DNA of 64,000 nt from an uncultured Methanomassiliicoccales archaeon (lineage in GTDB: Archaea; Thermoplasmatota; Thermoplasmata; Methanomassiliicoccales; UBA472), in NCBI GenBank assembly GCA_963800775.1, contig CAWDCQ010000048.1, positions 7,493 to 71,492 on the forward strand, in the 5' to 3' direction. Shown in pieces: positions 9,212 to 64,000 of the stretch. The notes beneath the pieces were generated by a model, which had not been told where the DNA came from, ran no database searches, and was given only the letters and a program-made list of their open reading frames with translations. Made by a program: the position numbers and the translations under genes. Within the stretch, counting starts at the first letter, position 1; each line of letters starts with the position of its first letter.

Positions 9212-9259
9212 CTCGCATCCCCCCGGGAGACCATCAGGGAGAAGTCCCGGACGATGGCG

Positions 9260-13578: not shown

Positions 13579-13611
13579 AATGTAATACAAAAGTCTTACT
13601 AATGTAATACA
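13579..13611 (+). promoter_or_regulatory. two direct AATGTAATACA repeats upstream of the RHH gene (candidate operator/promoter)
   Basis: Perfect 11-mers at 13579-13589 and 13601-13611, 22 bp apart, ending 15 nt before ATG 13626. The context is AT-rich and TATA-like. Confidence 0.35.
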
Positions 13612-13625
13612 TTATACCCATCATT

Positions 13626-14078: not shown

Positions 14079-14081
14079 AAA

Positions 14082-14267
14082 ATGACCGTTCTGAAAAGTA
14101 TCCGGGTTATCTTCTACCAAAACTGGAGATTCTTGGATCGTCAGATCCTCATGGATAGAAGTCCGCAATTCAATGGACACTTTGATATCGGATCAATCAT
14201 CGTTTCTCCGTCGCGAGCGATCATAGGATCATATGCATTGTTGTGGTTAAATTATCGGCAAGCCTGA
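14082..14267 (+). CDS. small hypothetical ORF abutting the RHH gene
   Basis: 61-aa ORF whose ATG starts 3 nt after the RHH stop. I recognise no motif in it. Confidence 0.25.
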   Translation: MTVLKSIRVIFYQNWRFLDRQILMDRSPQFNGHFDIGSIIVSPSRAIIGSYALLWLNYRQA

Positions 14268-14295
14268 CCCGTTTTAAATTAGAGGTAACGTTAGA

Positions 14296-15758
14296 TCAGC
14301 AAGACCTGGTGGCCACTGATTTTTCCTCATCAGCTTCAATTCTTCCGGTTCTCACCGCTTCTAATAGCGCTTCGTAATCCTTCAGGTTCTGCCTGGCATA
14401 TTGCTGGGCGAAAGAAGCCAGCGACCTATCGAAAACATCACCCTTTCCAAGGTATCCCGATATCATCGCTGCATCGCCCGAACGTGCATGTGCCTTTGCC
14501 AACGCCATACTGCAAATCCTAGCGTATATTGACAGTAGCTCATAATTGGCCTCGACATGATTGAAGAGATAATTTATGTTCCTAGTTTGACGTATGTAGT
14601 AATGTCGCTCATTTATCGTAACCCAGCCCAGCATGATGTCACTATCCGCCTGGATCATCCTCTGACCCTCGACGACCCTTTGTCCCTGATGTGAGTATTC
14701 GCTCTTAGCGACATAAGGTTCGTACACTGAATGGGCTGCTTCCTTTATCTGCAAGAACAAAGGATCTTTGGCCTCGGCAAGAAGGGGCAAGGCCCACTGG
14801 GTCCCTATGCTCCCAACGCCTACTACCTTTATGGCAAAGTCCTCAAGGTGGTATCGGTCGAATAATATGCGGGGGGACGCGCTTAGGGAATGGCGATACT
14901 TTCTGAAGATCTCATCGATATCCGGCCATGCATTATCTTCCTTCAAATGGCAGATTAGGGGCGGTTGGTCGATCAAATGCATGTGTCCTTCCACGGAATT
15001 GGATATCTTCGGGTATGAGCGAGGGGTGAGCCGCCACCTCTCGGTCTTCTTGGCTTTTTTCATGGCCTTCAATGAGCCTTGGTCTTTGTCTACGGACAAA
15101 CCCATGTGAAGATCCGGCTGGAAGAACCACATTTCCATTACGTGCATCTTCGCTAGCACGCTCATAAACTCACGATAATTCTTGCCGCAGATGACCGCAA
15201 GTTCCAGGCAATTTCGTTCCGATAGCCGTCTTTCCATCCCGGAGACGTAGAGACTGGCCGCTAGCCTCTTCAGGTCCCATTCCCATGGTGCTCGAATCGT
15301 TTCATCGAAATCATCGATATCGAACACGACATTCCCTTCTGGTGTGGCAGAGAATCCAAAGTTGGCGATGTGACAGTCCCCACCCGCCTGAACATGGATA
15401 CCAGTGATCGGAGTTGCGGAGAGATCATAGGCCATCATCGCCCCCGCCCCCCTGAGATAATTAAAGGGGCTCTGGGCCATCCGACCGTGACGTATGGGGA
15501 GCAGCTCCGGCAACCGGACCTCTCCGTTTCCAGCATGATATCTATCGGGTCCGGGCGGTTCGAGGACGGTTCCCAGCAAGCATGATCGGTCCTCGGCACA
15601 TTCTCACGAATCACTCTGCCGATTTGGACGCGTTGTGCCGCGGTAACGAAATCGGGCCTGTGGGTCGGAATGATCCCCTCCCGATCTTCCGACGATTCCC
15701 TTTGGCCCTTTACTCCAAGGTTCGCCATTTTATTTTGCCCTCGATCGTATCGTTCCAT
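14296..15758 (-). pseudogene. DUF2252-family protein, one frame break near 15520
   Basis: PIRHGRMAQSPFNYLRGAGAMMAYDL, GDCHIANFG and FDIDDFDE are present. The N-terminus (PRTDHACWEPSSNRPDPI) lies in ORF 15435..15770. Confidence 0.7.
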
Positions 15759-15994
15759 TGTGATTCCCAAGATATAAAGAAAGTTGTTTGGCCCTGGACG
15801 TGGATAATGACCACATAATCGGTTCCCTTATAACTAATCGTAACGATGGTGCCAATTATTTTCTGGAATTCATCCTGACATTGTCATTCAGATACAGTGG
15901 ATCAGCTGTCAATTAGGTTATAGAATAGATTGAAAAAGAATTGAATTGGGCCTCTGTATTTTTGATGCGTTAATTGATATAGCCAATTGAATCT

Positions 15995-16009
15995 GACTGA
16001 CCGTCAGTC
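15995..16009 (+). promoter_or_regulatory. perfect inverted repeat GACTGAC-c-GTCAGTC, candidate TetR operator
   Basis: A 7+1+7 palindrome ending 13 nt before the tetR-like ATG at 16022. Confidence 0.5.
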
Positions 16010-16021
16010 TAAGGTTTTCAA

Positions 16022-16567
16022 ATGCCCCGGTCAAAAAAAGCCGCATCCGAACGCCGTCTCGAGTTCATCAACGCGGCCGAGGCTCTGTTCAATGAGAAGG
16101 GATTCGAGAACACCTCCATCGACGACATAGTCCAGCGTGTCGATGTCGCGAAGGGGCTGTTCTATTATTATTTCAAATCGAGGGAGGAGCTCCTAGCCGC
16201 CATCGTTGATCGGATCCTCGATGAGATGGAAAAGGTGGTCATAGAAGCAACTAGGAAAGAAGGCCTGACCGCCATGCAGCGTCTAAAGGAGATGTCCACA
16301 TCCTCTGAAGCGATACGGCTCCGGTCAGGAAAGCTTATGAATTACTTCCGTGAGGAGCGAAACCAGGCGTTACATCTCCAGCTCGAGGTCCGCACTATGA
16401 AGTTCCTTGTTCCAGCAATGGAGGCGATAATCGAACAGGGCGTCATTGAAGGTGTGTTTAACACCCCCTACCCTAGGGAAAGTGCCATCGCACTATTCGG
16501 TATTGAGGGAGTGATGGATCATACCCAAACCGGTACCGATTATTGCGAGGACATGAAGGACCGCTAA
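16022..16567 (+). CDS. TetR/AcrR family transcriptional regulator
   Basis: N-terminal HTH: RRLEFINAAEALFNEKGFENTSIDDIVQRVDVAKGLFYYYFKSREEL. Confidence 0.85.
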   Translation: MPRSKKAASERRLEFINAAEALFNEKGFENTSIDDIVQRVDVAKGLFYYYFKSREELLAAIVDRILDEMEKVVIEATRKEGLTAMQRLKEMSTSSEAIRLRSGKLMNYFREERNQALHLQLEVRTMKFLVPAMEAIIEQGVIEGVFNTPYPRESAIALFGIEGVMDHTQTGTDYCEDMKDR

Positions 16568-16737
16568 GATCATCGCATTCCTAGCGAAACCTCCTGGGAG
16601 CTAAAGAAGGAACATTCTCCGAGTTCCTAAAAGAATTGAAGTGCCACAGAATGGAAACTGGCAATTGAACTGATCATATCAAAGGAAGTGTTACGCTGTT
16701 CGGAAAGAAAAAAGAAGCAAAGGAAGACGGGGGTCCA

Positions 16738-18794
16738 TTGGCGCCCGAGGAGGGCTCGAAGAACCGTACTCGCTCCCTCATCATGATCGGGCTGGCGCTG
16801 GGCATGTTGCTGGCAAGACCTGGACCCGGGACCGGTTGTGGGCACTAGTTTACCCAAGATCGTGGGAGGAATTGGCGGAATGAGCCTGTTCTCCTGGTTG
16901 TTCACTGCCTATATCCTCGCCGAGGCAGTGCCATACCCCATGGCCGGAAAGATGTCGGATCGCTTTGGCCGGAGGTCCGTTTTCCTGGTCGGTATCGGGC
17001 TGTTCCTTGTCGGTTCGATCGTGGCGGAGAGCATGTCCAACTCCATGGAAATGCTGATCGCCTGCCGGTTCGTGCAGGGCATTGGAGCAGGTGTCATCAT
17101 GCCAGTGGCCATGGCTACCGTGGCAGATCTGTATGCTCCATCCGAACTTGGCCGCATGCAGGGCCTGTTGGGAGCCGTATTCGCCGTGGCCAGCGTCATA
17201 GGTCCGTTCCTTGGTGGTTTCATCGTCGAGAACATGAGCTGGCGCTGGGTGTTCTATGTCAACCTGCCAGTGGGCATCCTAGCGATTGCGCTGACGGCTA
17301 CGATGTTCCCCAAACATGTAAAAGAAACTACGAAGCGCATGGACTTCCTGGGCATCGCCGCTCTTGCTACCTCACTTTCTACTTTCCTCCTGGTCCTAAC
17401 TTGGGAGAGACAACTTATTCATGGACAAGTCTGGAGATAATCGGTCTTAGTCTTCTGTCGGTGGTAGCACTGATAGCGTTCATAACGATTGAGCGCAAAG
17501 CCGAGGACCCCATCCTGCCGCTACGTATGTTCCATGAGCGAATATTCACTTTGAGCAGCGCAGGCCTGATGATAGTAGGTGTGGGGCTGTTCGGGTAATT
17601 TCGTTCCTACCAGATGTTCCTACAGGCGGTCGTCGGGATGAGCCCCACCAACAGCGGGGGACGCTGATACCGTTGATGATCGGTCTGATGTTCACCGTGG
17701 TGATCAGCGGGTTCTTGCTAAAGCGCACCGGGTACAAGGTCTGGCTGGTGGCCGGACCGCCCGGTATCCGCAGTTGGTCTATATCTGCTGTCGACACTCA
17801 ATGCCAACAGTTCCCAGACCGAAGCGATAATTTATACTCTAATAATTGGCATGGGCATTGGAATGGTCATGTCGAACTTCATGGTTGCGACACAAGGAAT
17901 GTCACGTCTAAGAAGGACATGGGTGTGGTGACTTCGTCATTGACGCTGTTCCGAAGCCTGGGGTCGGCGATGGGGGTGGCTTTCCTCGGCTCGGTCATTA
18001 ACCGACAGATGGCCGTGGAGCTGGGAAAGAACCTGCCTGCAGGAGCAGCTGCCGTACTGCCAGCTACCGACGTCAACACCCTCGGTGGACTGTTGCTAAA
18101 TCCGATCGCTGCAGCACAGATACCGGTTCCCATATTGGAAGCCATCCGGCTTTCGTTGAGCAACAGCATGACCTATATGTTCCTGATAGCGGGCGTGATC
18201 GTGTTGTGCGCAATCCTTGCCAGCTTGTTCGTAAAAAGCGTGCCGCTGAAGACACCTGATGAGTATCATGAGAAAGAACCCAGTGCGATAGCGTCAAAGA
18301 ACGTTTACAAGAGAATATTAATCCCTACTGACGGGAGCAAATACAGCCGGTCAGCGGTCGAACATGCACTCAGAAGTTGCCGTAAATCGAACGCTGAGGT
18401 CACACTATTGAACGTAATAGACATCACGAAGCTGGCCTGGACGCCCCAGGTACTATCGTCCACACCACAGGCTTCTTCCATGGCCATATCGTCAGATGCC
18501 GTGATTGGAGAAGCAATAGCGATGGCTAAGAAAAGAGGCGTAAAGGCGGACACACAGGTCAGGACGGGAGACCCTGCAATAATAATAAACGAATTGTCCG
18601 GTAACTACGATCTGATAATCATGGGTACCCGGGGTCTCCACGGATTGCCCCAAATGATTTTGGGAAGTGTTGCAGAAAAGGTCGCCAGAGATTCCAAGTG
18701 CCCGGTTAAGGTGGTAAAAGACGACCAATTGGTGGATGGTCGGACCCTTCTAAAATTTTTGAGGTCTAAGAATCCACTAAAGGGTGACGACTAG
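16738..18794 (+). pseudogene. DHA2/EmrB-type MFS transporter fused to a C-terminal universal stress protein (UspA) domain; at least 3 frame breaks
   Basis: Fragments 16838..17440, 17401..17598 and 17673..18794 belong to one gene. MFS motifs are GKMSDRFGRRSVFLVG and RFVQGIGAGVIMP. The USP domain (YKRILIPTDGS...IIMGTRGLHGL..ILGSVAEKV) is in frame from about 18306 with no start codon of its own. Confidence 0.7.
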
Positions 18795-18849
18795 TTTCGT
18801 TAGGGATCGAGCAGGGGGATGCAACTGATGCGTGATTCCCCCGCCCATT

Positions 18850-19980
18850 CCGTGTTACTATACTCAACGACTTAATTGATTGCGCATAATTTCCTGAGCG
18901 AATCATTCTCATCATTCCAACAATTGTACTGCTGAGAGATGACTTCCTCAAGGCTATCCAGATCTGGATAAAGGCGATTGTGGGTGCACAATCGCCTAGT
19001 CAGCTTCCAAATCCTTTCGCATGGGTTGAGTTCAGGGCTGTATGGCGGAAGGAACACGAAGCGGAGGTGGTCCTCCACCTCCGCTCTCCATTGCTGATGC
19101 AGTAGGGCGTGATGGTATCTGGCATTATCCAGAATGACGATCCGGACCTTATCTTTATTCAGAGGCAACGATTCAATTTGCTTAAAGAACTGCCAGGTCG
19201 TCGCGGCATTGAAGGTCCCTTCAGGCCGACAATATATGAACCGGCCAGTGTCGATATTGATCGCACCGAAATAACCGACCGCCTTGCGGTTGGGCTGCAT
19301 AAAGGCGATCGGCTGCTTCACTTCCGGTGGGATCCACATGTGGCAGGTCGAACCATGGAGCTGAAAAAGTGCCCCATCCATCGCCCATATTTCCATATCT
19401 GGGTCGGACCTCAATCGTCGAATGTTTTTTTGAAGTCTTCCTTCGCCTCGGCCGAGGAGCCGAGGATCATCGGGCGGGGTTTACGGTACCGGAAACCCAG
19501 CTCTGGAACAGGCGCTGGCATTGCCTGACGCCGATGGTCAATTGGAATCTTTCCTGGATGAAGGCGGAAAGCGTCTTACCGTCCCAGATATCGCCAGGCA
19601 GTCCAAAATCGATGGGTGATCTTCGCAGGGCTGCCGAGATCAGGTCCATCTGATCATCGGTCAAACGCGCTGGCCTGCCCGAATGTTCGGCCTCCATCAG
19701 TCCTTCAAGACCGTCTTTGTTGAACGCGTTCACCCAGGACTGGACGGTCCTGAGCGAGTCGCCAAGATACTCGGCGACCTGCTTGCAACTGTTCCCTCTG
19801 GCAACCAGAAGTACAGCGTGCAGGCGATGATCATATCTGGCGTCCTTGTTCCTGTGGATCTCGTCTTGCAAACCCATTATGATCAATGGCGCATCTGGAA
19901 TGGTCAGATTCTTCAATCCACCCTCACCGATTAGGGTAGATAACATTCGCAACTATTTATGACGTTGGGTATAGTTACGG
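18850..19980 (-). mobile_element. IS630-family insertion sequence
   Basis: Imperfect terminal inverted repeats: CCGTGTTACTATACTCAACGAC (18850-18871) versus the reverse complement of GACGTTGGGTATAGTTACGG (19961-19980). The best ungapped stretch matches 14 of 17. They enclose an HTH + DDE transposase, and the size is about 1.13 kb. Confidence 0.75.
18872..19946 (-). pseudogene. IS630-family transposase in three frames (two shifts, one at an A7 run)
   Basis: The HTH part is 19467..19952 and the DDE part is 18872..19414 (ILDNARYH, LPPYSPELNPCERIW). The linker LGFRYRKPRP...EDFKK lies in a third frame, and the second shift is at TTCAAAAAAAC. Confidence 0.75.
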
Positions 19981-20353
19981 AAAATTTTTTTGCCACTATT
20001 CTCATATAGTGGTTCCATTGTCGATCATTCTTTGGAATTTCGTTAATTAAAATATCCGGATTCCAAAAGGATTTTCCTCGACGTATGTATATAACGAAGG
20101 AACGAACACGTGTCAATCGTTTATGCCTTGTCTTCTTTGATCCGTTCCTGGGTTATGTGAAATCTATACTCCACCAATAACCGTTCTTTGACCTTTCCAT
20201 ATACCCCGAACAGCTCATGGCTCTCTGTGTTCTCCATTGTGTGATGTGACGGCCTCGCTGAATCTTTTCTAAAGGATTGTCGTAATTGCTGATGACCAAT
20301 ATGTCATGTACAAGGACGGTCAGTTATCGATTCGTTCTGTACTCCATCATCCG

Positions 20354-20803
20354 TCAAGTGGTGGTGACCACTATTGACAGCACATGATCCCCACCCGTTG
20401 ATGGTGCGGTTATCACTAGCGTGTACGTCATCGAACCTTCAGGGGAGATCGGGCTGGATATGGACGGGGTGATCGAGTCTAATGCGAACGGAGATGATAC
20501 CTTTATACCGATAACAGAATGGGACAGCGATGTGGCGTTATTGGTCAACGTAGCCCTTTCCGTGAACTCCTCACCTGGGCGTACATCAAAATTCATGGTC
20601 TGGTTTTGAATGGTTGGTCCGAAGTAGCCTGAAGAGGTACCATCATAGTTGATATCCAACCTGAACCCGTTCAACGTGATCACATTATTGGTAGAGTTGT
20701 TTGCATTGTTGTTAGTAGCCCCAATAACCGCGACCGTCGCGATCAAAAGAACGATCATCAGGACCACCGCCCCCACAACGATCATTTTATCCTTGTTGTT
20801 CAT
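20354..20803 (-). CDS. N-terminally membrane-anchored extracellular protein (hypothetical)
   Basis: One TM helix (MIVVGAVVLMIVLLIATVAVIG) followed by an Asn/Thr/Ser-rich beta-like domain with many N-x-S/T sequons. Confidence 0.4.
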   Translation of the reverse strand: MNNKDKMIVVGAVVLMIVLLIATVAVIGATNNNANNSTNNVITLNGFRLDINYDGTSSGYFGPTIQNQTMNFDVRPGEEFTERATLTNNATSLSHSVIGIKVSSPFALDSITPSISSPISPEGSMTYTLVITAPSTGGDHVLSIVVTTT

Positions 20804-20819
20804 AGAACGCCGGTGTTGG

Positions 20820-21014
20820 TCATGCGACGTCGAATGAATCCTGCGGGCCAGGTCCGGAGGTGTTTGGGGGTGATGCTACAAAAGGTTCTACGGGCTGATC
20901 GGTTTGAGCCTGGTTTGATGAACTCTTATCAAATGATGGTGCTATTTGTTCTCCGCAGTTGCCACAGAATCTCGCGTCGTCAACGTTAGTAAATCCGCAT
21001 TTGGGACAGATCAT
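20820..21014 (-). CDS. zinc-ribbon domain protein
   Basis: MICPKCGFTNVDDARFCGNCGEQI followed by a Pro/Ser-rich tail. It sits directly upstream of the membrane-anchored ORF. Confidence 0.5.
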   Translation of the reverse strand: MICPKCGFTNVDDARFCGNCGEQIAPSFDKSSSNQAQTDQPVEPFVASPPNTSGPGPQDSFDVA

Positions 21015-21215
21015 TCTTGGAATGAGAGGGTTTTCAGATAAATTAGATTATCCATGCGAGTATTTGTTCGTTTATTATCTATTTAACATCGATCCGATTC
21101 GTTTCTTTTCTTTGAAAAAATCGTTAATTCGAATCATCATGGGGCTTTCAGAGACGTAGCTATTTAGAGCGGCCCCGCGCCACACAGATGTAGGCCGGGA
21201 CCGAGCCGATCGATC

Positions 21216-21611
21216 CTAGTTTTGCAGATGTGTGATCTGTATCAGGTTGCCGCACGTGTCATCGAATATCGCTATGGTCGAGCCGACTCCCGGCAGCTTC
21301 GTCGGCTCCATGGTGAACTTCACACCAAGGGGTTTTAACCGTTCGTACTCTTTTTGCACGTCGTCGACAAAGAACATGGTGGCGACTATGCCTCCCTTGT
21401 AAAGGCCTTCCTGGTACGCCTTTGCGACCGGATTCGCGTTCGGTTCCAGGACCAACTGAGCGCCGTCCTTGTCCTCTGGCGAAACAACGGTCAGCCATCT
21501 GTAGTTGTTGGCCTTTATGTCCGCCTTTTTCACGAAACCGAGTTTTTCGGTGTAGAACTTGAGCGCCTTTTCCTGGTCGTCAACGAGTAAGCTGGTCAGC
21601 TTGATCTTCAT
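21216..21611 (-). CDS. VOC/glyoxalase-bleomycin resistance fold protein
   Basis: 131 aa with the pattern LLVDDQEKALKFYTEKLGF ... FFVDDVQKEYERLK..GV.F...P. Confidence 0.8.
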   Translation of the reverse strand: MKIKLTSLLVDDQEKALKFYTEKLGFVKKADIKANNYRWLTVVSPEDKDGAQLVLEPNANPVAKAYQEGLYKGGIVATMFFVDDVQKEYERLKPLGVKFTMEPTKLPGVGSTIAIFDDTCGNLIQITHLQN

Positions 21612-21664
21612 GCCATCACGATTGCGATTGGTGATCCGAGTCTATAAAATCTTATGCCGAACAG

Positions 21665-22731
21665 GGTTCTGTAGAAACCATCCATCTATTAATTATGAAT
21701 AGTAAATTATAATTATTTCCCGGCACGAATTGACTCCATCCAGGGTCGACAGTCTTGCAGGACAAAGCCCCTGGGATGGTATGGTCTCGTGTCGAGAGAT
21801 GGGATAACTGGAAGCAACAATATTATTGTGCGGGCTCTACGCGAGGTAAAGATCGCGGTGCGGCGCACCGCATGGCCAAAGTACTCGAACAAAATGTCGA
21901 ACCATTTGTTCACCCAGCACCAGCTGCTGGCGTTGCTTGTGCTCAGGCAGCGCCTGAGCAAATCCTACCGCGAGTTCTTGTGCTGGCTGAGAGTGATGGA
22001 CGGAGTGGTGAAGGAGCTGGGTTTGGACGATCTTCCTCATTTCACGACCCTGCAGAAGTTCGCCCGCCGGATCGGTCTGGAGCGGCTCGAGGCGGTCATG
22101 GCGACGATCGCCAGGCGGCATGCGCGCGGCGACGTGACCGCGGCCGTCGATTCCACCGGGTTCTCCTGCGGCTATGCTAGCCATTACTTCATCCATACCA
22201 TCTCGGTCAAGCGGTCCGAGGGCGATCGGATGATCGAGCGGGCGGTGACCCGCCACGTGAAACAGCAAGCGGTCATCGATGTCGAGAGCCAGATGATACT
22301 GGCTCTGAGCTTCCGGTACGGTCCGTGCAACGACTTCCGGGACGGGGTCCCGGTGCTGGCCAAGGCGGCCGGCACGTTCAACATCGGGACCGTCCTGGCC
22401 GACAAGGGGTACGATTCGGAGGAGATCCGCCGGTTCATCATCAAGGAGATGAAGGCTGGCACCCAGATCCCTACCAGGAAAGCCAGTAGATTGGCGGGCG
22501 AGCTCAAGGGGCTGTATCGGAGGACCCAGTCCTCGACATTCGACGAGAATGTCTACCACCAGCGCTCGCTGGTGGAGACGATGCATTCGGTGTCGAAAAG
22601 GATCATGGGCGAGGCAGTCAGGGCCCGCAGCCAGGACGGTCAGTGGAAAGAATTGGTGATCAGGGGAATCGCTTATAACGCATGGAGGGCGAGCATCATA
22701 CCAGCGATCTGACCATGGTTTCTACAGAACC
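21665..22731 (+). mobile_element. IS5/IS4-superfamily insertion sequence with perfect 17-bp terminal inverted repeats
   Basis: GGTTCTGTAGAAACCAT at 21665-21681 and its exact reverse complement at 22715-22731 enclose a single DDE transposase ORF. Confidence 0.75.
21789..22712 (+). CDS. DDE transposase (IS5-like, DDE_Tnp_1 type)
   Basis: AAVDSTGF, LADKGYDSEEIRRF and YHQRSLVETMHSVSKRIMG are typical. The likely start is ATG 21894 (MSNHLFTQHQL). Confidence 0.75.
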   Translation: MSRDGITGSNNIIVRALREVKIAVRRTAWPKYSNKMSNHLFTQHQLLALLVLRQRLSKSYREFLCWLRVMDGVVKELGLDDLPHFTTLQKFARRIGLERLEAVMATIARRHARGDVTAAVDSTGFSCGYASHYFIHTISVKRSEGDRMIERAVTRHVKQQAVIDVESQMILALSFRYGPCNDFRDGVPVLAKAAGTFNIGTVLADKGYDSEEIRRFIIKEMKAGTQIPTRKASRLAGELKGLYRRTQSSTFDENVYHQRSLVETMHSVSKRIMGEAVRARSQDGQWKELVIRGIAYNAWRASIIPAI

Positions 22732-22787
22732 ACGCACAGAGTATAGATTTTAATAACGCCGCCTCCACTTTTAATCGGAGGATAATC

Positions 22788-23156
22788 GTGTCAAAAGTAT
22801 CTTGGTTCGAAATGAGCGCTGACGACCCGAAGAGAGCCATGGATTTTTATGAAGAGGTCTTCGGCTGGAAATTCCAGAAGCTGGAAGGCGGGGACTATTG
22901 GCTGGCGACGGCTGGGGACGAGAAGGAAATGGGGATCAACGGGGCAATCATGCCCAGAAAACCGCAGACCCCGCCGGTGGTCAATACCATCAACGTCATC
23001 AAGATCGACGAGGCCATTCGGAAGATAGAAAAGAAGGGCGGGAAGATAATCGTGCCGAAGATGGATGTGGCCATGGCAGGTACCCTGGCCTATTTCCTGG
23101 ATAGCGAGGGCAACATGCACGGCCTCTTGCAGCCTAAAGAGAACATCAAAATGTGA
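22788..23156 (+). CDS. VOC/glyoxalase-fold protein
   Basis: WFEMSADDPKRAMDFYEEVFGWKF ... GTLAYFLDSEGNMHGL. Confidence 0.8.
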   Translation: MSKVSWFEMSADDPKRAMDFYEEVFGWKFQKLEGGDYWLATAGDEKEMGINGAIMPRKPQTPPVVNTINVIKIDEAIRKIEKKGGKIIVPKMDVAMAGTLAYFLDSEGNMHGLLQPKENIKM

Positions 23157-24885: not shown

Positions 24886-26572
24886 ATGAACGCTGCGGTC
24901 ACGCCCATTTTACTCGATTGGACAATGGCAGTCCTAGCGGTCGTTCTCGCCATTTTGTTCTGGAGAAAGGGAACGAAGCAATTCAAGCTTCATTTTGTCC
25001 TGATGTCCCTGCTCGTGTGCTTGCTGGCGGTCAGTTATATGTTCGAACTGTTTAGCTCAGATATAGCTGCGAAACTTCTCTGGAACGACGTAGAGTACGT
25101 CAGCATCGTGGGCCTTCCCTTGATCTACTTCCTGATAGTGGTCAAATACGCAGGAAGAGAGGACCTCCTCACCCGGAGAAACATCCTTCTGCTCTCCGCT
25201 ATACCGATATTCAGTCTGATAATGGTCTGGACAAATGACTGGCATCACCTGTTCTACGAGTCGGTTCAGATGAGCACGGACCCTTTCGAGACCTATTCTT
25301 CGATCAAAGGTCCCGCCTATTTGATGCACCTTGTCTACTCTTTGGGACTGGTGGCGATGGCGATCGGAGTGGTGTCCGCTGCATTCGTCCGCTCACCCAG
25401 GTTTCAGCGCACCCAGATAGGCCTAATCCTGCTTTCGGGGATAATGCCCACCGCCTTCATCGCATGCTACAGTTTGGGGTTCCCATTCCCGGTCTCATTA
25501 GTGGACGGGATGATCATTTCGTTCATTCTCAGCAGTGTGTTCCTCTACCTGGGCGTTTTCCGGTATGGACTGTTCTCCGCCAGCCCCCTGGTGCTGAATT
25601 CCATAGCCGACATCATGCAAGACGGCGCGATCATGCTCAACCAAGACGACCAGATAGCCTATCTGAATCCCATGGCGAGCCGCATATCACAAAAAGGAAA
25701 ATCGCATCCCCTGGGAAGGCAGATCGGTGAGGTCTTTCCTTCCATCCATGCCGCCATTGGGCATGAGATCGAGGGATCGCGGACTATCGAGATGATCGGT
25801 CCGGAAGGCGATCCGCTCCGGATACAGGTCCAGATCTCCAACCATTGGGACTCCCCAGATGTGCTTGGGACGATTGCTCATCCTTAGGGATGTATCCTCC
25901 CTAAAGCGATCGGAGGAAGCATTGGCAGCTTCCAACAACAAATTGAACGTTATGTGCGGGGTCACGCGGCACGACATCCTAAACCGGACCAATGTCATCC
26001 GGGGATATGGTCAGCTGCTGTCCGACAACAAGAACTCTGCCCGTTCCCAAGAGTATTTACAAAAAATGATGGACTCAACGGCCGCCATCGAGCACATAAT
26101 CAATTTTACCAAGGACTACGAGAAGGTCGGAGTAGAGTCACCGGAATGGCAGAACGTGGCAAGGGTATATCAGAAGGCCAAGGTCCTTTGCGCGGAACAA
26201 CGTATCGAATATATGGTGGACGCGGCAACGGTAGAGGTGTATGCCGACCCAATGCTGGAACGATTGTTCTACATTCTCCTGGATAACTCTTACAGTCACG
26301 GTTTGAACGTCACCAGAATATCTCTCACAGCGAAGCAGGTCGGCGAAGAATGCCTCATCGTGTATGAGGACAACGGGGTCGGAGTGGCGCTGGAGCTTAA
26401 GAAAATGATATTCCGGAAGGGCTTCGGAAAGGATTCCGGTCTGGGCCTCTACCTGGGCACACAGATCCTGGCGATTACCGGCATAGGGATTCGGGAGAAT
26501 GGTGTTCCTTCAAAAGGGGCCCGGTTCGAGATCGAGGTCCCCAAGGGAATGTGGCGCTACTCGACAAAATAG
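24886..26572 (+). pseudogene. sensor histidine kinase (N-terminal 7TM sensor + PAS + kinase core), one frame break near 25860
   Basis: About seven TM helices are followed by PAS (IMQDGAIMLNQDDQIAYLNP). The H-box region is VTRHDILNRTNVIRGY, and the ATPase boxes are YEDNGVGV and GFGKDSGLGLYL. Confidence 0.75.
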
Positions 26573-32396: not shown

Positions 32397-34204
32397 ATGA
32401 GCGGCATCTGCGGCACCTACGGGAAGGACGATCTCGGCCTGATCCGAATATGTCCGACACCCTGGTCCATCGGGGACCGGACGAAGTGGGACATATTCCG
32501 ATGATGGCGTGGCCCTAGGTCACTGCCGGCTGGGTCTCAGCGACGCAGGTGCGGACCGCGAACCGGTCCGGAACCAGGACGGGACCGTCTGGGCGGTCTT
32601 GGACGGCACTATTTACAATCAAAAGGGACTTCGGGAAGGGCTCAGCCGGGCATCATTTCTACACCTCATCCTCGGCCGAGGTCATCGTTCATCTTTACCA
32701 GGATGACCCGGACCACTTCCTCGAACGGTTGAACGGACCGTTTGCATTGGCCATATGGGACTCGGGACGGAAGCGTCTACTATTGGCCCGTGACCCGCTG
32801 GGGATCAAACCGCTCTACTACTGCCAAGACGGTGGTGTTCTGTACTTCGCCTCGGAGATCAAGGCGCTATTGGCGGCCGGTGTGGAAAAGCGGGTCGATG
32901 AGGACATGATCGACTGCTATCTGGCATACCAATTCTGCCTGGGCGACCGAACTCTGTTCGGTGGTATTAGGAAGCTGATGGCCGGGCAAGTTCTGACCGC
33001 TGGCCGGGAGGGAATCTCCGTAAGGCAGTACTGGGACATCGTTCCCGGACCGACGACCACCACGGACCTGGCCGCTTCGGAGCGCCTCAGGAGATTGCTG
33101 GAAAGTTCCTGCGAGAACAGCGTTATGGCGGACATCCCCGTCGGCGCCTTCCTTACTGGCGACATCAGCTCTTCGGCGGTGGCGGCGCTGACGGGACCGT
33201 TCCACAAAGACCTCCATACGGTGTCGGCCGGGTTCACTGCGGGCCGCGAGCTGGAATTGGCCAAGATGGTCTCCGAGCACCTCGGTACCATCCATCACGA
33301 ACTGGTGATTGGACCGGAGATGGTGGCCAAGCATATGGAGAAGATGGCATGGCACAACGACGAGCCGTTGAGCGACCCGGAAGGGTCAAGGACCACTTTC
33401 TGTCCCTCGAAGCGAGCAGGTACGTCAAGGCGGTGGTCGCGGGCCGAGGGGGCGACGAGCTATTCGCCGGACTTCCGATCTATGCCCAAAACCTGAAGTT
33501 CGAAGAGACCCGGCACAAGATGTACGGGGGGTTGGCGAGATCACTGATGGGCATCTATCCGCAGCGGGGCAACATCTTCCGCAACCTGAAAGAGAAAGAG
33601 ATGTCCACTTTCGAGGCCGACAGCATAGAGGAGATGATGCTGCGCTCGATCAGGGAACTGAGCGACCACGAGATCAAGGTGGCTGCGCGGGAAGGCTGCA
33701 TCCCGTTATGATGCGATCGCGGTAATGCCCCGCGGGATCAAGTACCGTCTGGACCGGATGTTGTACATCGATTGCAAGAACCGGCTCCCTGAGAAGTACC
33801 TGGCATATGCTGACAAGGCGGCTATGGCCAGTTCCATCACTGCGGGAATGCCGGTGTTGGACAAGGCGATCGTTGAGTTCGCTTTCACACTGCCTCCGGC
33901 TCTCAAGCTCAATGCCGGTCAGGGCAACTTCGTCCTCAGGCTGGCCATCAAAGACCTACTGCCATCCGAGATCGTTAAGCGTGAGGATGCCGGATCCTCC
34001 GCGCCGATCGAGGATTGGATGAGGGGAGAGGTGGGCGAGATGGCGCTGGCCGAGTTGGATTCATCCGAGTTCCTGAGATCCCATTTCGACGCCGGACGTC
34101 TGGAAAGGATCGGGAAGGAGCTGGGCGCCAAGAACGGCAAGGCGTCGCGCAAGATATGGACGGTCTACACACTCGGTCTTTGGCATCGGACCTTTTTCAG
34201 TTGA
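32397..34204 (+). pseudogene. asnB: asparagine synthase (glutamine-hydrolysing) AsnB-like amidotransferase, at least 4 frame breaks
   Basis: MSGICG (Cys2 nucleophile), ARDPLGIKPLYY, and ADIPVGAFLTGDISSSAV (PP-loop-like). The ATG is 1 nt after the GT4 stop. Confidence 0.8.
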
Positions 34205-57180: not shown

Positions 57181-58689
57181 ATGATTGGCCGCCGATCCCT
57201 TTTGATCATGATTTCGACGATCCTGACCGCCATATTGTCGTTCGTAGGGCTACTGGCCGTGACGAACTACCTGGGCAGGGACGTCTATGGCAACATCTCC
57301 TGGGTGCTTGCCACTGTGGCCACGCTGAACATAGCCTCGGACCTGGGCTTCCAGAACGCGCATATCAAGCGGGTATCCGAGGGCCAGAACGAGAACGACT
57401 GCATAGCCACGTATTTCATGACCAAACTGGTCCTGACCTCGCTCATGGTGGTGTTCGCGCTTTCCGCCATCTTCACATGGAACTCGATCACGAATTCTGC
57501 CATGTCCCCGGAGACCTGGGACCTGCTCATCCTGTTCCTGCTCTACTACGTGATGTATGACTTCGCCTACGTCGTCATCCACACCTACAATGCCAGAATG
57601 GAGACGACCAAGTCCCAGCTCATCCTCCTCACCGATCCTCTGATACGGATACCGCTGGTCATTTTCGTTTCCATCAACCATCTGACCACCATCGACCTGG
57701 CCTTCGCCTATGTGTTTGCTGCTCTAGGGGTGTTGCTGGTGAGCGCATTCCTTCTGAGGAGGGGAAGTTTCCGTTGGACAAAACCGACGCTTTTCCGTTC
57801 ATACATCAAGTTCGCGCTGCCCCTGGCCCTGGTCTCCATCGCAGGCGCTGTCACGCTCAATCTCGATAAGATACTGATCGGCGTCTTCTATTCGGCGGGA
57901 GATGTGGCCTATTACTCATCGTCCCAGACCTTTATCAGGACCTTCAATGTCATCGGGACCGCGGTCGCGGCGCTGGCATTCCCTTCCTTCTCCCGCTTGC
58001 ATGCCAAGGGGGATATGGCGGGGATCCGAAAAGTGACACACGCGGCCGAGCGGTACATATCCATGATCGGGACGCCGATCGTAACGCTGCTCGTCGTCTT
58101 TCCGACCGAGATCTGCGTTACCTTTTTCGGTTCCCAATTTGCCCCGTCCGGGGATGTCATGCGCTTCCTGGCGATCTGGTTATGGCTTACCCTGCTCAAT
58201 CAGGTGTACCTGTCCCAGATCCTTGGTGTTGACCGACCTGACATCAGTGCCAAAAGGACAATGGGGACCTTCATCCTGAACGTGATCCTTCTGTTCATCT
58301 TCGTCCCCAACGAGCTGTTCGGAGTGAAGATGCTCGGCCTGTCCTACACCGGAGCGGCACTGGCCACGGCGATCACTGCGGTCATCCTGTTCATCTCCAT
58401 GCGCCTGGTCCTGAAGAGCCTCACCGGGACGGGCAGCAACCCAGGGATCCTGAAGCACATGCTCGCAGCGGTGGTCTCGGGCCTGGTCATCGCAACATTG
58501 GGCACGTTCTACCACTTCTCCGGATTCGTTTCCCTGATCATCTTCGGATCGGTCACCATGGTCGTGTTCTTTTCGGTATTGACATTGTTGAAGGAGTTCA
58601 CGAAGTCCGATGTGATCTATTTCGCCGACCTTGTCAACCCCAAGAAGATGTTCGGTTACATGGGCGAGGAGATAAAGAACAAGAAATGA
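57181..58689 (+). CDS. Wzx-like oligosaccharide flippase (MOP superfamily), copy 2
   Basis: 502 aa, co-linear with copy 1 from MIGRRS to YMGEEIKNKK. Confidence 0.8.
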   Translation: MIGRRSLLIMISTILTAILSFVGLLAVTNYLGRDVYGNISWVLATVATLNIASDLGFQNAHIKRVSEGQNENDCIATYFMTKLVLTSLMVVFALSAIFTWNSITNSAMSPETWDLLILFLLYYVMYDFAYVVIHTYNARMETTKSQLILLTDPLIRIPLVIFVSINHLTTIDLAFAYVFAALGVLLVSAFLLRRGSFRWTKPTLFRSYIKFALPLALVSIAGAVTLNLDKILIGVFYSAGDVAYYSSSQTFIRTFNVIGTAVAALAFPSFSRLHAKGDMAGIRKVTHAAERYISMIGTPIVTLLVVFPTEICVTFFGSQFAPSGDVMRFLAIWLWLTLLNQVYLSQILGVDRPDISAKRTMGTFILNVILLFIFVPNELFGVKMLGLSYTGAALATAITAVILFISMRLVLKSLTGTGSNPGILKHMLAAVVSGLVIATLGTFYHFSGFVSLIIFGSVTMVVFFSVLTLLKEFTKSDVIYFADLVNPKKMFGYMGEEIKNKK

Positions 58690-58844
58690 TGCGGTTATAG
58701 GACAGGACCTGACTGCTGGTAGGTGTTCGCTCTTATTCAGGCGGGAAGGGCGGCTTCCATCGCTGGTCGATCCCGCCGTTGGGGCACACCACCTCGTTTC
58801 GTACAGTTCGAGATATCGACTAGACCGATTGGCTCGGAGTCCAG

Positions 58845-59817
58845 TCACTGGCGACGGCGGTCCCCGTTCTCCCGGGGGAAGTACTGGGGCATCTCTCCCA
58901 GGGTGGAGAAACGGAAATGGTTGTCCTTGGCATAGGCGAGGGCATGCTCGATGTTGCCCAGGATGCGCTGGCAATCCTTTTCCGTCGCCGCGTAGGGTGA
59001 GGCGCCGGGCATGATCTCCATGGAATGGAACATCATCGTCAGGGTCACGTCCTTCTTGTCCGAGTAGTGTTCCGCCGTCTGTTGCATCACTTCCACCATG
59101 CCAGGGCCGGTATTGTTGGAGGGCACGGAGCCATTGAAGGCGGTACAGCCGATCGGTCACGGTATGCATTACGCTGGCATGCCATTTTCTGTGTTTCTCT
59201 GGTTCCAGGATGGTCACCGGGACCTCGAGGACACCCTTTCCATTGGGGGCCAGCATGTCCTTTTCCTGCGGATAGTATGGCTGGTCGGGGGCCTTAAGGA
59301 AATTGGCCTTGCCCTCCGGGTAGTCCCAGTCCATCCTGGGCGTGACCGAGGAATCGACCTTGTAATTGAGCTCGTCCAGGATCTTCATGGTGTTCAGCCC
59401 TGCGGCGAAGCGCCCGGCGCGGAACGATGCCGGCTTGTAACCCAGGCGGGTGGCGAAAAGCGCGGTCAGGTTCACCATTTTCTGGCGTTCGATCTCATAG
59501 GGGTAGGAGGACTGCATCGCGTCGGTGGCCATGTTGGCCATCGGGCCCCGGTGCTCGTTAGGCCCGATCAGGTCACCATGCAGGTGGGTTCCAAGCTCAC
59601 AGTCCTTGGTGGACCTGAGGGTCTCGACACAGCGATCGTTCATGATCACTTCAGGCGACAGCAGGTAGGTAGGCCTCGCGCCATATTTCGAGAACAATGT
59701 GCCCAGCTTATCCGGGATGCCCGTGGTGACCGACGAGAAGCTCTCGTCAGACGAGACTTTCCAGCTCTTTGACTTGTCTATCTCGGTGTCGATGGTGATG
59801 AGCAGATGGATGGCCAT
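58845..59817 (-). pseudogene. polysaccharide deacetylase-like (CE4/WalW-type) protein, one frame break near 59130
   Basis: LLITIDTEID, CELGTHLHG and SFRAGRFAAG. The C-terminal part is ORF 58845..59126. The rest of ORF 58180..59826 is antisense read-through of the flippase. Confidence 0.55.
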
Positions 59818-60067
59818 TTTTCCCAAACCCGGGACGCGTTGAGCGCCTTCAACGTTTATGAATGATTGCCATGTAATGAATCCAAGGGGGCTTGATGGGT
59901 AACTATTATCCCAGAACAGCCTTCAAAACACTGGCGCATGAGCGGAGAGCTGGGAACAGTACATGTCGAACTTTTCAGTCCGGATCCCGAAAATACCAGT
60001 CCTTAGTTCATCAAATAGACCATTAGCATAGATAGGTTTATTCCCTTTTCCTCCATCCAGTTATCAT

Positions 60068-61057
60068 ATGGAGCCATCGAGGCCGTTAGAAACTGGCCTA
60101 AACGGACTTAATGATGCGGCAGGCGACCGCATTGCTGGTGCAGCAGTTCCGATAGGCAAAGCCCAACATAAGATCGCAGTAGTAGTTCCCGCTTACAACG
60201 AGGAGATCACGATCGGCAGTGTCGTCATAGGCGCGGCAAAATACAGCGACCGGGTGTATGTGGTCAACGATGGTTCGAAAGACCTCACCTCTGAGACAGC
60301 TAAGGCCGCCGGCGCATTCGTGGTCGAAATGGAAAAGAACGGCGGAAAGGCGAAGGCGCTGATGACCGGGCTGAGAAAGGCCCGTGAGGACGGTTACAAC
60401 GTAGTAGTGATGATGGACGGGGATGGACAGCACAAATCCATCGATATCCCGGCCTTGATCGATCCGGTGATCAACAACTCCGTCGACCTGGTCATCGGCT
60501 CCCGGTTCATGAAAGAGGATAATAAGATCCCAGCATACAGGCAGGCCGGGCAAAAAGTGCTGAACACCTTCACCAACATGGGGTCCTCGGGAAAGTTGAC
60601 CGACACCCAGTCCGGATTCAGGGCACTGGGACCAAGGGCATTGGAAAACCTGGACTTCGAATCCAGCGGATATTCGGTCGAGTCCGATATGATCACCTGC
60701 TTCTCCGAACGGAACCTGAGCATCGTCGAGGTGCCGGTAGCGGTAAGGTACGATGTCCCGAATGGGCACAAGCAAGGTTCCACGTCCATGGGCTTCACTC
60801 TCCTGGAGAACGTCATAACCACCGTCGCATACAAGCGGCCTTTGCTGGTGTTCGTCGGCCCGGGGGCATTGCTGGCCGGGATAGGATTGATCCTAGGATT
60901 TTTCGCCTTTGAGAACTACTATTTCTTCGCTTCCTGGTGGCTGCAGGTGCTTCTGGCGGAATTCGCCCTGGCACTGGGCTTCCTCATGATCGCGTTCGGC
61001 CTGATGCAGAACTCTCTGGCCATGTACATGAGGATGAACAAAGGGCAGCCCAAATAG
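60068..61057 (+). CDS. GT2-family glycosyltransferase (dolichyl-phosphate sugar synthase-like) with C-terminal TM helices
   Basis: VVVPAYNEE, VVNDGSKD, MMDGDGQH (DxD), and two C-terminal hydrophobic helices. Confidence 0.85.
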   Translation: MEPSRPLETGLNGLNDAAGDRIAGAAVPIGKAQHKIAVVVPAYNEEITIGSVVIGAAKYSDRVYVVNDGSKDLTSETAKAAGAFVVEMEKNGGKAKALMTGLRKAREDGYNVVVMMDGDGQHKSIDIPALIDPVINNSVDLVIGSRFMKEDNKIPAYRQAGQKVLNTFTNMGSSGKLTDTQSGFRALGPRALENLDFESSGYSVESDMITCFSERNLSIVEVPVAVRYDVPNGHKQGSTSMGFTLLENVITTVAYKRPLLVFVGPGALLAGIGLILGFFAFENYYFFASWWLQVLLAEFALALGFLMIAFGLMQNSLAMYMRMNKGQPK

Positions 61058-61140
61058 CCTAGCGGCTAGGCCGCAAACATCTTCCATCATTCTAATTCGA
61101 CGCTCATGGGCGTACTCTGCCTCCTACAGTTTCATGCCAT

Positions 61141-61410
61141 TTGTCGAGGCCCGTTCTGATCCTTACCCGTGAGCTCGTTCGCCCCCATCTCTCAGCGCTC
61201 ACGGTCGCTCCGATCACCACGACGATCCGGGGGCTGTCGTCTGAGGTACCAGTCGGTGCAGCCAACGGGCTCGATGGTCCCTCGGTGGTGAGCTGCGACA
61301 ACATCACGACGGTCCCCAAGCAGGCCATCGGTGTTCAAATCGGCGTTCTGCTCGACGACCAAGAGCTCGTGCTCAGCGCGGCGATCCGGGCTGCGTTCGA
61401 TCTCGACTAG
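61141..61410 (+). CDS. mazF: PemK/MazF-family toxin, apparently N-terminally truncated (bacterial)
   Basis: RPVLILTRELVRPHL..TVAPITTTIRGL.SEVPV...GL..PSVVSCDNI.TVPK resembles actinobacterial MazF3-type toxins as I remember them. Only a TTG start is available, and no antitoxin gene lies upstream. Confidence 0.7.
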   Translation: MSRPVLILTRELVRPHLSALTVAPITTTIRGLSSEVPVGAANGLDGPSVVSCDNITTVPKQAIGVQIGVLLDDQELVLSAAIRAAFDLD

Positions 61411-61463
61411 CGCCTGCGCGTTAGGAGCCGAGATCTGTCAATGCACTTGAGCAGAGGAGAAGC

Positions 61464-61873
61464 ATGAACGTAAGTCGGGAGATGGCAACTGCGTTCGTTG
61501 AGAGCTACGGGCAAACGTGGCAGAGCTGGGATTACGAGGCTTCGTCGACCTGTTCAGCGACGACGTCGTCTACGTGGAGCACCAGGTCGAGGAGACAGTA
61601 GTGGGGCGCGACGCGATGGCTCGCTACATCCGCAGAGAGCACTATGAAGCTGGCACCGTCGACGTTCGCATGGGCAGCCCGATCGTCGAAGGCAACCGGG
61701 TCGCTGCTGAGTTCTGGACCACGATGAGCAACCGTGAGGGCGAGCCGGAGGGGACGCTCATGGGGTGCTTGATCGCCCAGCTCGACCCTACGACCGGACG
61801 GTGCACGCGCTTTCGTCAGTATTGGCTTGAATCTGACGGACACTTCAAGCCGTCCAGCGGCTGGGGCGAGTAA
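61464..61873 (+). pseudogene. SnoaL/NTF2-like fold protein, one frame break near 61520
   Basis: ATG 61464 follows GAGGAGA (MNVSREMATAFVESYGQTWQSWD). The sense continues in ORF 61517..61873 (FVDLFSDDVVYVEH...). Confidence 0.5.
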
Positions 61874-62393
61874 TCGGCACAGCGCGGGCGCTCATCCGAG
61901 GCGCGGTCGACCGCAGGACGCCCCTCGAGCTGAGCGATCGACGAACGGCTGGCCTGGCCAACACCTGGGGTGCTTTCGCCGTCTTGCGCTGCATGGTTGC
62001 CTCTAGCCGACACCGAGCAGCTTGACGCTCCCGAGGCTGAAGAACGCAGCCCGGGCCCTGTCTTCTTCATCTCCCCGGAAGTCGACCGGACCCTCTGGGC
62101 CGCGGAACTCGGCGTAGGTTCAGGAGCCTGTGTCTGGCGATGATCGCTTTGCTCGTCGAGCAGGTGGCCGACCGAAAGCCGAACTGACGACCGCAACGGA
62201 CGACAAGCAAGCGTCTCGCTGACCCGTGGGTCGGCTCCTGCTTTGGCCTCGAAGCGGGAGCCGCCACAGGTCTCGACCTTCGTGCCTCGTGGGATAGGAG
62301 GCTCTGACGCGACGTCGGATCGCATCGGAGTCGAACGACACGACATCAGAAGATGCCACTTTGCAGCGGGATCGTCGTGAATTCGACAACGAG

Positions 62394-62479
<86 letters not shown>

Positions 62480-62590
62480 AGAGGGCGCGAGTATAGTCGC
62501 GCGCCCTCCGCCGGGCGGCAGGGGCGGTCGGCCCGCTTGCGTGCGGGTCCGCGGCGGCGCTTGCGTCCGTCCACGGGCGGCGCTACAGTG

Positions 62591-62604
62591 CGAACACACG
62601 TTCG
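62591..62604. promoter_or_regulatory. LexA operator (Gram-positive/actinobacterial SOS box CGAAC-N4-GTTCG)
   Basis: CGAACACACGTTCG is a perfect palindrome ending 31 nt upstream of the lexA ATG. An AGGAG RBS sits at 62621-62625. Confidence 0.75.
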
Positions 62605-62635
62605 TTGCATGTACCCGAACAGGAGTCCGGCAGCC

Positions 62636-63259
62636 ATGGATCTGACCAAGCGCCAGCAGGAGATATTCGACTTCATCCGCAAGTACTCGGCCAAGTACGG
62701 TTACCCGCCGACGGTGCGCGACATCGGCAAGGCGGTGGGCTTGGCCTCATCCTCGACCGTGCACGCCCATCTGGCCAACCTCGAGAAGATCGGCCTCTTG
62801 CGACGCGACCCGTCCAAGCCGCGCGCCATCGAGTTGCTCGATCGTGCGATGGGAGGAGCGGTTGAGAGCGTTCGCGGGATCGTGCGGGCCGAGGGCCTGC
62901 CCCTGCTGGGCGCGGTGGCCGCGGGGGCGCCGATGCTTGCCGAGGAGAACATCGAGGAGTACGTACCCGTGCCCACCGTCGCGGGCGGTGGTGATGGCGA
63001 CTACCTGCTGCGGATTCGCGGCGAGTCTATGACGGACGCAGGCATCCTCGAAGGCGACTATGTCGTGGTCCACTCACAGGACACCGCCCAGAACGGCGAC
63101 ATCGTCGTCGCGCTGCTCGGCGAGGAGGCGACCGTGAAGCGGTTCTTTCGTGAGTCCGATCACATTCGACTGCAGCCGGAAAACCCGGCCATGGAGCCGA
63201 TCCGCAGCAAAGAGGTCAAGGTACTGGGGAAGGTTGTGGGACTGTTGCGGACCCTCTGA
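62636..63259 (+). CDS. lexA: LexA repressor
   Basis: LTKRQQEIFDFI..YGYPPTVRDIGKAVGL.S.STVHAHL..LE..G.L, cleavage-site VAAG, catalytic GESM and ATVKRF. Confidence 0.92.
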   Translation: MDLTKRQQEIFDFIRKYSAKYGYPPTVRDIGKAVGLASSSTVHAHLANLEKIGLLRRDPSKPRAIELLDRAMGGAVESVRGIVRAEGLPLLGAVAAGAPMLAEENIEEYVPVPTVAGGGDGDYLLRIRGESMTDAGILEGDYVVVHSQDTAQNGDIVVALLGEEATVKRFFRESDHIRLQPENPAMEPIRSKEVKVLGKVVGLLRTL

Positions 63260-63344
63260 GCCCGCCGGCCGGCGTGAGGTGGTGTGGGGTGGGGGCACAG
63301 TTTCCCGTTCGCCCCTTCACGGCGGGGCTCGCGCGCGCTAGGTT

Positions 63345-63680
63345 GCTCGGGCAGGTCAGGCAGCCGCGGAGGCTTGGGCCTTCGAGGAAAGTCCGGACAT
63401 CACAGGGCAGGGTGGTCGAGAGATCGACCCGGGGAAACCCGCGGGAAAGTGCCACAGAAACAAACCGCCAACGTCCGCCGTCCCACGTGAACGGCGGGCC
63501 GGCAAGGGTGAAATGGTGCGGTAAGAGCGCACCAGCGTCGCGGCGACGCGATGGCTGGGCAAACCCCACTCGATGCAAGGCCAAACAGGACCGCTTGCAG
63601 GCTGCCCGCCGAGGTCCAGGTAGGCCGCTCAGATGGATGGCTGCTCAACGACAGGATCCGGCTTATCGATCTGCTACGGA
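63345..63680 (+). ncRNA. rnpB: bacterial type-A RNase P RNA
   Basis: Conserved blocks are GAGGAAAGTCCGGAC, GGGCAGGGTG, GGGAAAGTGCCACAGAAA, AAGGGTGAAA.GGTGCGGTAAGAGCGCACC and ACAGGATCCGGCTTATCG. P1 pairs 63350-63357 with 63668-63675. The ends are approximate. Confidence 0.85.
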
Positions 63681-63683
63681 AAA

Positions 63684-63705
63684 GCCCCGCTCCGGCGGGG
63701 CTTTT
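63684..63705 (+). terminator. intrinsic terminator after rnpB
   Basis: GCCCCGC-tccg-GCGGGGC followed by TTTT. Confidence 0.7.
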
Positions 63706-63817
63706 CTACATAGCGACTCACTGGGCGCTTGTTCAGGAGAGGATCAGCCCCTGGACGACGTCGACAGCGAGCGCGTCGGTGGATTGGCGCTCAGGCCTTC
63801 GGGTAGGCTGACGCTGA

Positions 63818-64000
63818 GTGAGCGCAGCTATCCAGCTTGCGGGCTTGGTGAAGTCGTTCCGCGGCACCCACGGGCCTGTTCATGCGGTGCGTGGGGTCGA
63901 TCTGTCGATATCCGCCGGTGAGACCGTTGCACTGCTCGGGCCCAACGGCGCCGGCAAGTCGACGACGATCGACATGATGCTCGGGCTCACCGCGCCCGAC
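63818..64000 (+). CDS. ABC transporter ATP-binding protein (5' part, runs off window)
   Basis: GTG 63818, then VSAAIQLAGLVKSFRG...VDLSISAGETVALLGPNGAGKSTTIDMMLGL with Walker A GPNGAGKST. It is absent from the ORF track because no stop is reached. Confidence 0.8.
   Translation, partial: MSAAIQLAGLVKSFRGTHGPVHAVRGVDLSISAGETVALLGPNGAGKSTTIDMMLGLTAPD

Follow-up and report, generated by a model that had tools for sequence, protein, structure and literature searches.

The 64,000-nt stretch of DNA analysed here (the window) contains a junction at which archaeal sequence gives way to bacterial sequence, and we infer, with strong support from sequence comparison, that this junction is an inter-domain chimera created by an assembly error inside one deposited metagenomic contig. 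At least 61 kb of Methanomassiliicoccales chromosome would have been butt-joined to at least 2.86 kb of chromosome from a Solirubrobacteraceae-like bacterium (Actinomycetota); the join would have arisen in sequencing or assembly, and the juxtaposition would carry no biological function. A first-pass annotation, made from the window's letters, had favoured misassembly of archaeal with bacterial DNA. Independent contigs bear this out: in separate assemblies, the natural sequence of each parent lineage runs on uninterrupted across the breakpoint.

Exact-sequence look-ups in NCBI and ENA traced every queried protein of the window, archaeal or bacterial, to one 84,618-bp contig. The look-ups covered seven archaeal-side proteins (proteasome beta subunit, MtaA, DUF1616, two flippases, GT2 and DUF2206) and three bacterial-side proteins (the MazF fragment, SnoaL and LexA), each of which is recorded on one or two contigs. 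Because proteins of both sides share one record, the chimera would lie inside a single public contig, along which the taxonomy of the genes changes abruptly. The idea that the window consists of two pasted records was rejected, as both sides sit on the 84,618-bp contig and the window holds no run of Ns. The earlier proposal of an unmarked contig junction in a bin is likewise unlikely, given that the proteins of both sides are on a single deposited contig. The contig most likely belongs to a Methanomassiliicoccales MAG, and its bacterial block measures at least 2.86 kb and at most about 23.5 kb.

Alignment of independent public contigs of both parent lineages to the window placed the join between positions 61143 and 61144. 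The archaeal contigs read CATGCCATTTG up to the break and GCCAAAC beyond it; the window reads CATGCCATTTG and then TCGAGGCCC; the bacterial loci read CTCGACAAG and then TCGAGGCCA. Archaeal homology stops at 61143, and the bacterial MazEF loci (12/12) start matching at 61143, so that G61143 is common to both parents and forms a microhomology of 1 nt. No inserted bases, adapter, repeat or duplication was found at the join, and a search of this left boundary of the bacterial block for an attachment-site repeat, a target-site duplication, an insertion-sequence end and an integrase or recombinase found none. The archaeal part ends 86 nt past the GT2 gene, in intergenic DNA, and the bacterial part opens inside mazF. 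The interval 61058-61140, which had been named as the switch point, proved instead to be intergenic DNA of the archaeon, with conserved counterparts in two independent archaeal contigs, and the break lies 3 nt to its right. The coordinates of the features discussed here are collected in the table.

Table. Annotated features of the window, with strand and supporting evidence.
Feature	Coordinates	Strand	Evidence
DDE transposase	18872-19414	-	
DDE transposase	21789-22712	+	
GT2 glycosyltransferase, AglJ-like (dolichyl-phosphate sugar transferase); last archaeal gene, with its own stop codon	60068-61057	+	Pfam, TIGR04182
Archaeal intergenic tail	61058-61143	.	aligns with archaeal contigs L038 and L030
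Breakpoint	61143-61144	.	end of archaeal homology and start of bacterial homology
mazF (MazF3-like), 5'-truncated; codons 12-99 and stop	61144-61410	+	Pfam PemK_toxin
SnoaL-like gene, frameshifted	61465-61873	+	Pfam SnoaL_2
tRNA-Leu(GAG), bacterial	62393-62479	-	ARAGORN; Rfam tRNA, 51.4 bits
SOS (LexA) box CGAACACACGTTCG	62591-62604	+	consensus scan CGAAC-N4-GTTCG
lexA, complete, 207 aa	62636-63259	+	TIGR00498, Pfam
rnpB, bacterial class-A RNase P RNA, full length	63348-63682	+	Rfam RF00010 (RNaseP_bact_a)
Terminator-like hairpin and T run after rnpB	63689-63710 (hairpin 63689-63701)	+	consensus scan
ABC transporter ATPase gene, 5' part, cut by the window end	63818-64000	+	Pfam ABC_tran, E 5.2e-10

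The archaeal parent is represented by two JGI metagenome contigs, L038 (sample 3300042090), which is 97.2% identical to window positions 59776-61143, and L030 (sample 3300069644), which is 95.3% identical to positions 57898-61143. Past 61143 both run on, for 0.7 kb and 5 kb respectively, into an archaeal Epimerase_2 gene, and this flank occurs nowhere in the window. At 95-97% identity, these contigs demonstrate that the join is missing in close relatives, and say nothing on the exact strain.

Two short sequence elements lie close to the join. The only repeat that straddles it is an exact 12-nt direct repeat, GACGCTCATGGG, present at 61099-61110 on the archaeal side and at 61753-61764 within the bacterial SnoaL gene. 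A misjoin through a shared repeat was rejected, as the archaeal copy is 33 nt away from the join and the bacterial copy 610 nt. Within this 12-mer the sequences of L030 and L038 depart from that of the window, and the repeat is probably due to chance. Immediately 3' of the GT2 stop codon, at 61058-61070, there is a 13-nt palindrome, CCTAGCGGCTAGG, which is partly kept in L038 (CCTAGCGCCTAGG) and in L030 (CCTACTGCCTAGG) and may serve regulation or termination in the archaeon.

Protein comparisons assign the left side to the Methanomassiliicoccales. The GT2 gene product matches Pfam Glycos_transf_2 (E 1.2e-22) and the AglJ model TIGR04182 (E 2e-36, below that model's cut-off). When one genome per species was scanned with this protein, 23 loci were recovered, of which 22 are from Methanomassiliicoccales, and the amino acid identities to two Methanomassiliicoccales MAG chromosomes were 77% and 73%. 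Further upstream, the left side encodes a Taw1-type wyosine radical-SAM enzyme, the KH domain of the archaeal termination factor FttA and an MtaA-type methyltransferase, and a large glycosylation cluster spans about 30-61 kb of the window. The earlier statement that every recognisable gene on this side is archaeal in type holds for Taw1, FttA, the proteasome beta subunit, DUF2206, DUF1616 and the AglJ-like GT2, which are clearly archaeal, but not for most of the others (glycosyltransferases, kinases, TetR, MFS and transposases), which are of kinds that occur in both domains. Separate classification of the two parts, which had been suggested as a check, returned Methanomassiliicoccales on the left and a Solirubrobacteraceae-like bacterium on the right.

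The archaeal side has some features of its own. A low-GC stretch (43-53%) at 11500-22800 carries DUF2252, TetR, a truncated MFS transporter, a Usp protein and the two DDE transposases; the stretch, whose dinucleotide signature falls on the archaeal side, is probably a genomic island of the archaeon with many insertion sequences. ARAGORN and Rfam found one tRNA gene in the 64 kb, which is the bacterial tRNA-Leu. Across the 61-kb archaeal part, Rfam reported no archaeal structural RNA gene above its gathering thresholds.

Immediately right of the join lies a truncated copy of a member of the MazF/PemK family. The frame 61096-61410 matches PemK_toxin (E 3.2e-11) over profile positions 21-105 of 109 only, and a relative of full length (99 aa) gave an E value of 2.8e-40 against MazF3 of M. 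tuberculosis (PDB 5UCT), in agreement with the earlier call of a MazF3-like toxin. As had been noted from the letters, neither ATG nor GTG occurs in phase in the open frame, which extends from 61096; the number of missing N-terminal codons can now be given as 11. Relatives with an identity of 90% or more have 99 aa and begin MRPIHVASLDK-SRPVLIL, where the window reads ...SCHL-SRPVLIL. In all of these relatives a 77-aa gene, mazE, ends where mazF starts, so they have both a complete PemK fold and an adjacent antitoxin gene; the window has neither. The earlier reading that the bacterial piece lacks an antitoxin gene and begins mid-operon is thus confirmed, with mazF cut at codon 11/12 and the upstream mazE missing. 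The public record annotates an 89-aa protein here (P0147, 61141-61410), whose TTG start at 61141 comes from archaeal-side bases.

Directly beyond mazF lies a SnoaL-like gene that the first-pass annotation had overlooked (SnoaL_2, E 1.4e-9 on the frame 61517-61873; Pfam). It is broken by a 1-nt deletion at about 61535, where the window has one G fewer than the bacterial loci L032 and L034, and L034 carries an intact 129-aa SnoaL_2 gene directly 3' of its mazF.

The genes listed earlier for the remainder of the bacterial block, namely tRNA-Leu(GAG), lexA with its own box, a type-A RNase P RNA with a terminator, and an ABC ATPase, were all recovered, the terminator only as a terminator-like hairpin. 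The LexA protein has both the LexA_DNA_bind (PF01726) and Peptidase_S24 (PF00717) domains, scores 223.8 bits against TIGR00498 (cut-off 110.95), and is preceded by an SOS box 32 nt upstream of its ATG. The 64 kb contain no CGAAC-N4-GTTCG site other than this box, CGAACACACGTTCG, where chance would give 0.14. The closest source-named relatives of LexA, at 87-88% amino acid identity, are from Solirubrobacteraceae; other relatives reach 91%. The rnpB gene aligns to all 367 positions of its model (1-367) at 221.5 bits (gathering score 100, E 1.5e-70). For the hairpin downstream of it, the terminator-like scan found one site where 1.7 were expected, which makes it weak evidence alone. The 60-aa ABC ATPase fragment had short relatives of at most 83% identity, the nearest named of which are Solirubrobacteraceae, and a protein search with the fragment gave no 100% match.

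We compared the bacterial block with related loci to place it in a chromosome. Twelve independent MazEF loci (L024-L029 and L032-L037; 83-94% nucleotide identity, each with a 99-aa MazF) begin matching the window at exactly 61143; upstream of that point, each of them carries the 77-aa gene and the opening 32 nt of mazF, both of which are missing from the window. One of these, L034, has the order 77-aa gene, mazF, SnoaL, matches window positions 61143-61947 at 89%, and carries a tRNA-Leu(GAG) further on that is 97% identical to that of the window. A 2.8-Mb contig, L031, carries a minus-strand tRNA-Leu(GAG), the box CGAACACATGTTCG (41 nt upstream of its lexA), lexA and a class-A rnpB in the same order and orientation as the window; the tRNA position agrees, and the rnpB genes are 92% identical in nucleotide sequence and follow lexA in both. 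Named relatives of MazF, LexA and the ABC fragment are Solirubrobacteraceae, a family of the class Thermoleophilia (Actinomycetota). The right block thus comes from the chromosome of a Solirubrobacteraceae-like, high-GC soil bacterium, which fits the actinobacterial-type partner that had been proposed.

Carriage by a known mobile element was rejected, as no plasmid or phage covering more than 12% of the bacterial segment was found. Because of this, and because of the synteny with L031 and L034, we read the block as native chromosomal DNA and not as a mobile element. In L034, three partial tRNA-Leu copies (12857-12977, 13839-13899 and 16452-16483) lie between SnoaL and the intact tRNA, and in L031, tRNA-Leu(GAG) directly adjoins a region (3236-9886) that encodes a TrwB-like ATPase, a relaxase, a methylase and a serine recombinase. 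This tRNA gene is an integration hotspot in the bacterial relatives, and the mazEF-SnoaL module thus belongs to a tRNA-Leu island of the bacterial parent.

Composition changes abruptly at the breakpoint. The GC content is 54.4% for positions 1-61143 versus 65.0% for 61144-64000, as expected from the earlier remark that the right-side DNA is GC-richer. GC alone is not decisive, because an archaeal segment at 8-11 kb is also 65% GC. A tetranucleotide log-likelihood profile (archaeal versus bacterial) was driven by GC, with that segment scoring near zero, and for this reason it was replaced by a GC-normalised dinucleotide signature (relative abundances compared by the delta* distance). The delta* between the right piece and the left part was 124, as against 47 +/- 13 (maximum 75.5) for 117 left segments of equal size. 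The right piece lay at a distance of 57 from the bacterial comparison loci and 127 from the archaeal loci, and none of the left segments was nearer to the bacterial loci than to the archaeal ones. This signature, in which GC is normalised, is decisive for the foreign composition of the right piece.

The GC-rich archaeal segment merits a separate description. It spans 7461-11239, has a GC content of 63-66%, equal to that of the bacterial piece, and contains a 585-aa ORF without a Pfam match and a T2SSE-type secretion/pilus ATPase (9260-11239, minus strand). By its archaeal-like dinucleotide signature, this segment does not appear to be a second chimeric block.

Many genes of the window are split into ORFs that lie next to each other or overlap, at 4092-5508, 24886-26572, 32549-34204, 58180-59826 and 61465-61873; they are FttA, a 7TM histidine kinase, an asparagine synthase, a gene whose unbroken form in L030 encodes 323 aa, and SnoaL. 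For those with close relatives, the cause of the split was a single-base indel: such indels disrupt one archaeal gene twice, at 58788 and 59124, and SnoaL once, at 61535. The splits look like long-read consensus errors spread along the whole contig, and not like pseudogenes. Because indels break genes on both sides of the join, a noisy long-read assembly is suggested, and the naming of related records, taken with the indel patterns, likewise indicates that the source assembly was long-read. The likeliest route would be a chimeric long read, or a misjoin by a long-read assembler, in a sample holding both organisms; this route is favoured because an overlap of 1 nt is too short for a misjoin through shared k-mers. 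JGI sample 3300042090 yielded both the archaeal contig L038 and the bacterial MazEF locus L028. A junction-spanning 30-mer, with known polymorphic sites made degenerate, had 0 matches in JGI metagenome contigs; the same contig set does contain each flank in unbroken form, the archaeal one in L030 and L038 and the bacterial one in L027-L029, L033 and L037.

We considered whether an archaeal contig and a contaminating bacterial contig of the same bin were pasted together without a gap, by submitter scaffolding or by a pipeline step before deposition. Such a binning or scaffolding artefact would place the contig ends anywhere, as is the case here for an end in mid-gene on the bacterial side and an intergenic end on the archaeal side, and would leave no more in common than the one base found at the join. 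Scaffolders normally insert Ns between the contigs that they join. The window has no such run, and the proteins of both sides are on one 84,618-bp record, so we regard a pasted join as improbable.

We give still less weight to the reading of the junction as a real molecule, from a Methanomassiliicoccales archaeon that recently received at least 2.9 kb of Solirubrobacterales DNA (lexA, rnpB and tRNA-Leu) downstream of GT2 by illegitimate recombination or end-joining, and whose insert is still bacterial in composition. The placement of both sides within a single deposited contig and the co-occurrence of the two organisms in the same samples would suit such a transfer, and a blunt join with 1 nt of microhomology is compatible with end-joining or illegitimate recombination in vivo. 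The archaeal relatives at 97% and 95% identity are nevertheless uninterrupted at the site, and the junction 30-mer is not found in the JGI metagenome contigs. Decay following a transfer could account for the truncation of mazF and the frameshift in SnoaL, but similar 1-nt indels break archaeal genes too, which points to sequencing error over decay. Moreover, neither an integrase nor an attachment site, a duplication or an insertion-sequence end marks the left boundary; the block consists of housekeeping DNA of a bacterium and keeps its native chromosomal synteny; and the composition of the right piece is fully bacterial. The marks of a horizontally acquired island, namely an integration signature (here at the left boundary), recurrence in other samples or relatives, and mobile-like cargo, were thus not seen. 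With multi-domain chimeras a known assembler error, we consider a real transfer very improbable; if true, the junction would record a striking transfer, between domains, of regulator genes and genes for housekeeping RNAs. An assembly error within the deposited contig remains our preferred explanation.

The biological interest of the junction is low, and its main value lies in quality control. A public contig of 84.6 kb carries at least 2.9 kb of Solirubrobacteraceae-like DNA; left unflagged, it would place a bacterial lexA, rnpB, tRNA-Leu and mazF in an archaeal genome, and could mislead studies of horizontal transfer, pangenomes and marker genes. The chimera has already yielded a database entry for a hybrid 89-aa 'protein'. 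The case also illustrates that a chimeric breakpoint can be located to a single nucleotide without reads, by means of independent contigs of both parents.

Multi-domain chimeric contigs are a documented class of error for metaFlye, metaMDBG and hifiasm-meta, and can be told by an abrupt change of GC content and of taxonomy at the level of genes (bioRxiv 10.1101/2025.04.22.649783). The junction described here resembles those long-read chimeras in its shift of GC and taxonomy within a contig, in joining the DNA of an archaeal population to that of a bacterial population of the same sample, and in the lack of a biological signature at the breakpoint. Unlike them, it was judged from sequence comparison, whereas the published chimeras were confirmed by read clipping (bioRxiv 10.1101/2025.04.22.649783). 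The block also shares with tRNA-adjacent genomic islands and integrative elements a foreign composition and a toxin gene near tRNA-Leu. In contrast to such islands, its archaeal-bacterial boundary is not at the tRNA, has no attachment-site repeat or recombinase, and cuts a gene, and the block carries the chromosomal housekeeping genes lexA and rnpB. The tRNA-Leu island biology is thus a feature of the bacterial parent and not of the archaeal-bacterial boundary. Taken by themselves, the lexA with its CGAAC-N4-GTTCG box, the RF00010 RNA and the MazF3-like toxin are typical of the LexA/SOS, class-A RNase P and MazEF families of Actinomycetota, and the sole unusual trait relative to Actinomycetota MazEF is the mazF cut at codon 11/12 with the loss of its antitoxin gene.
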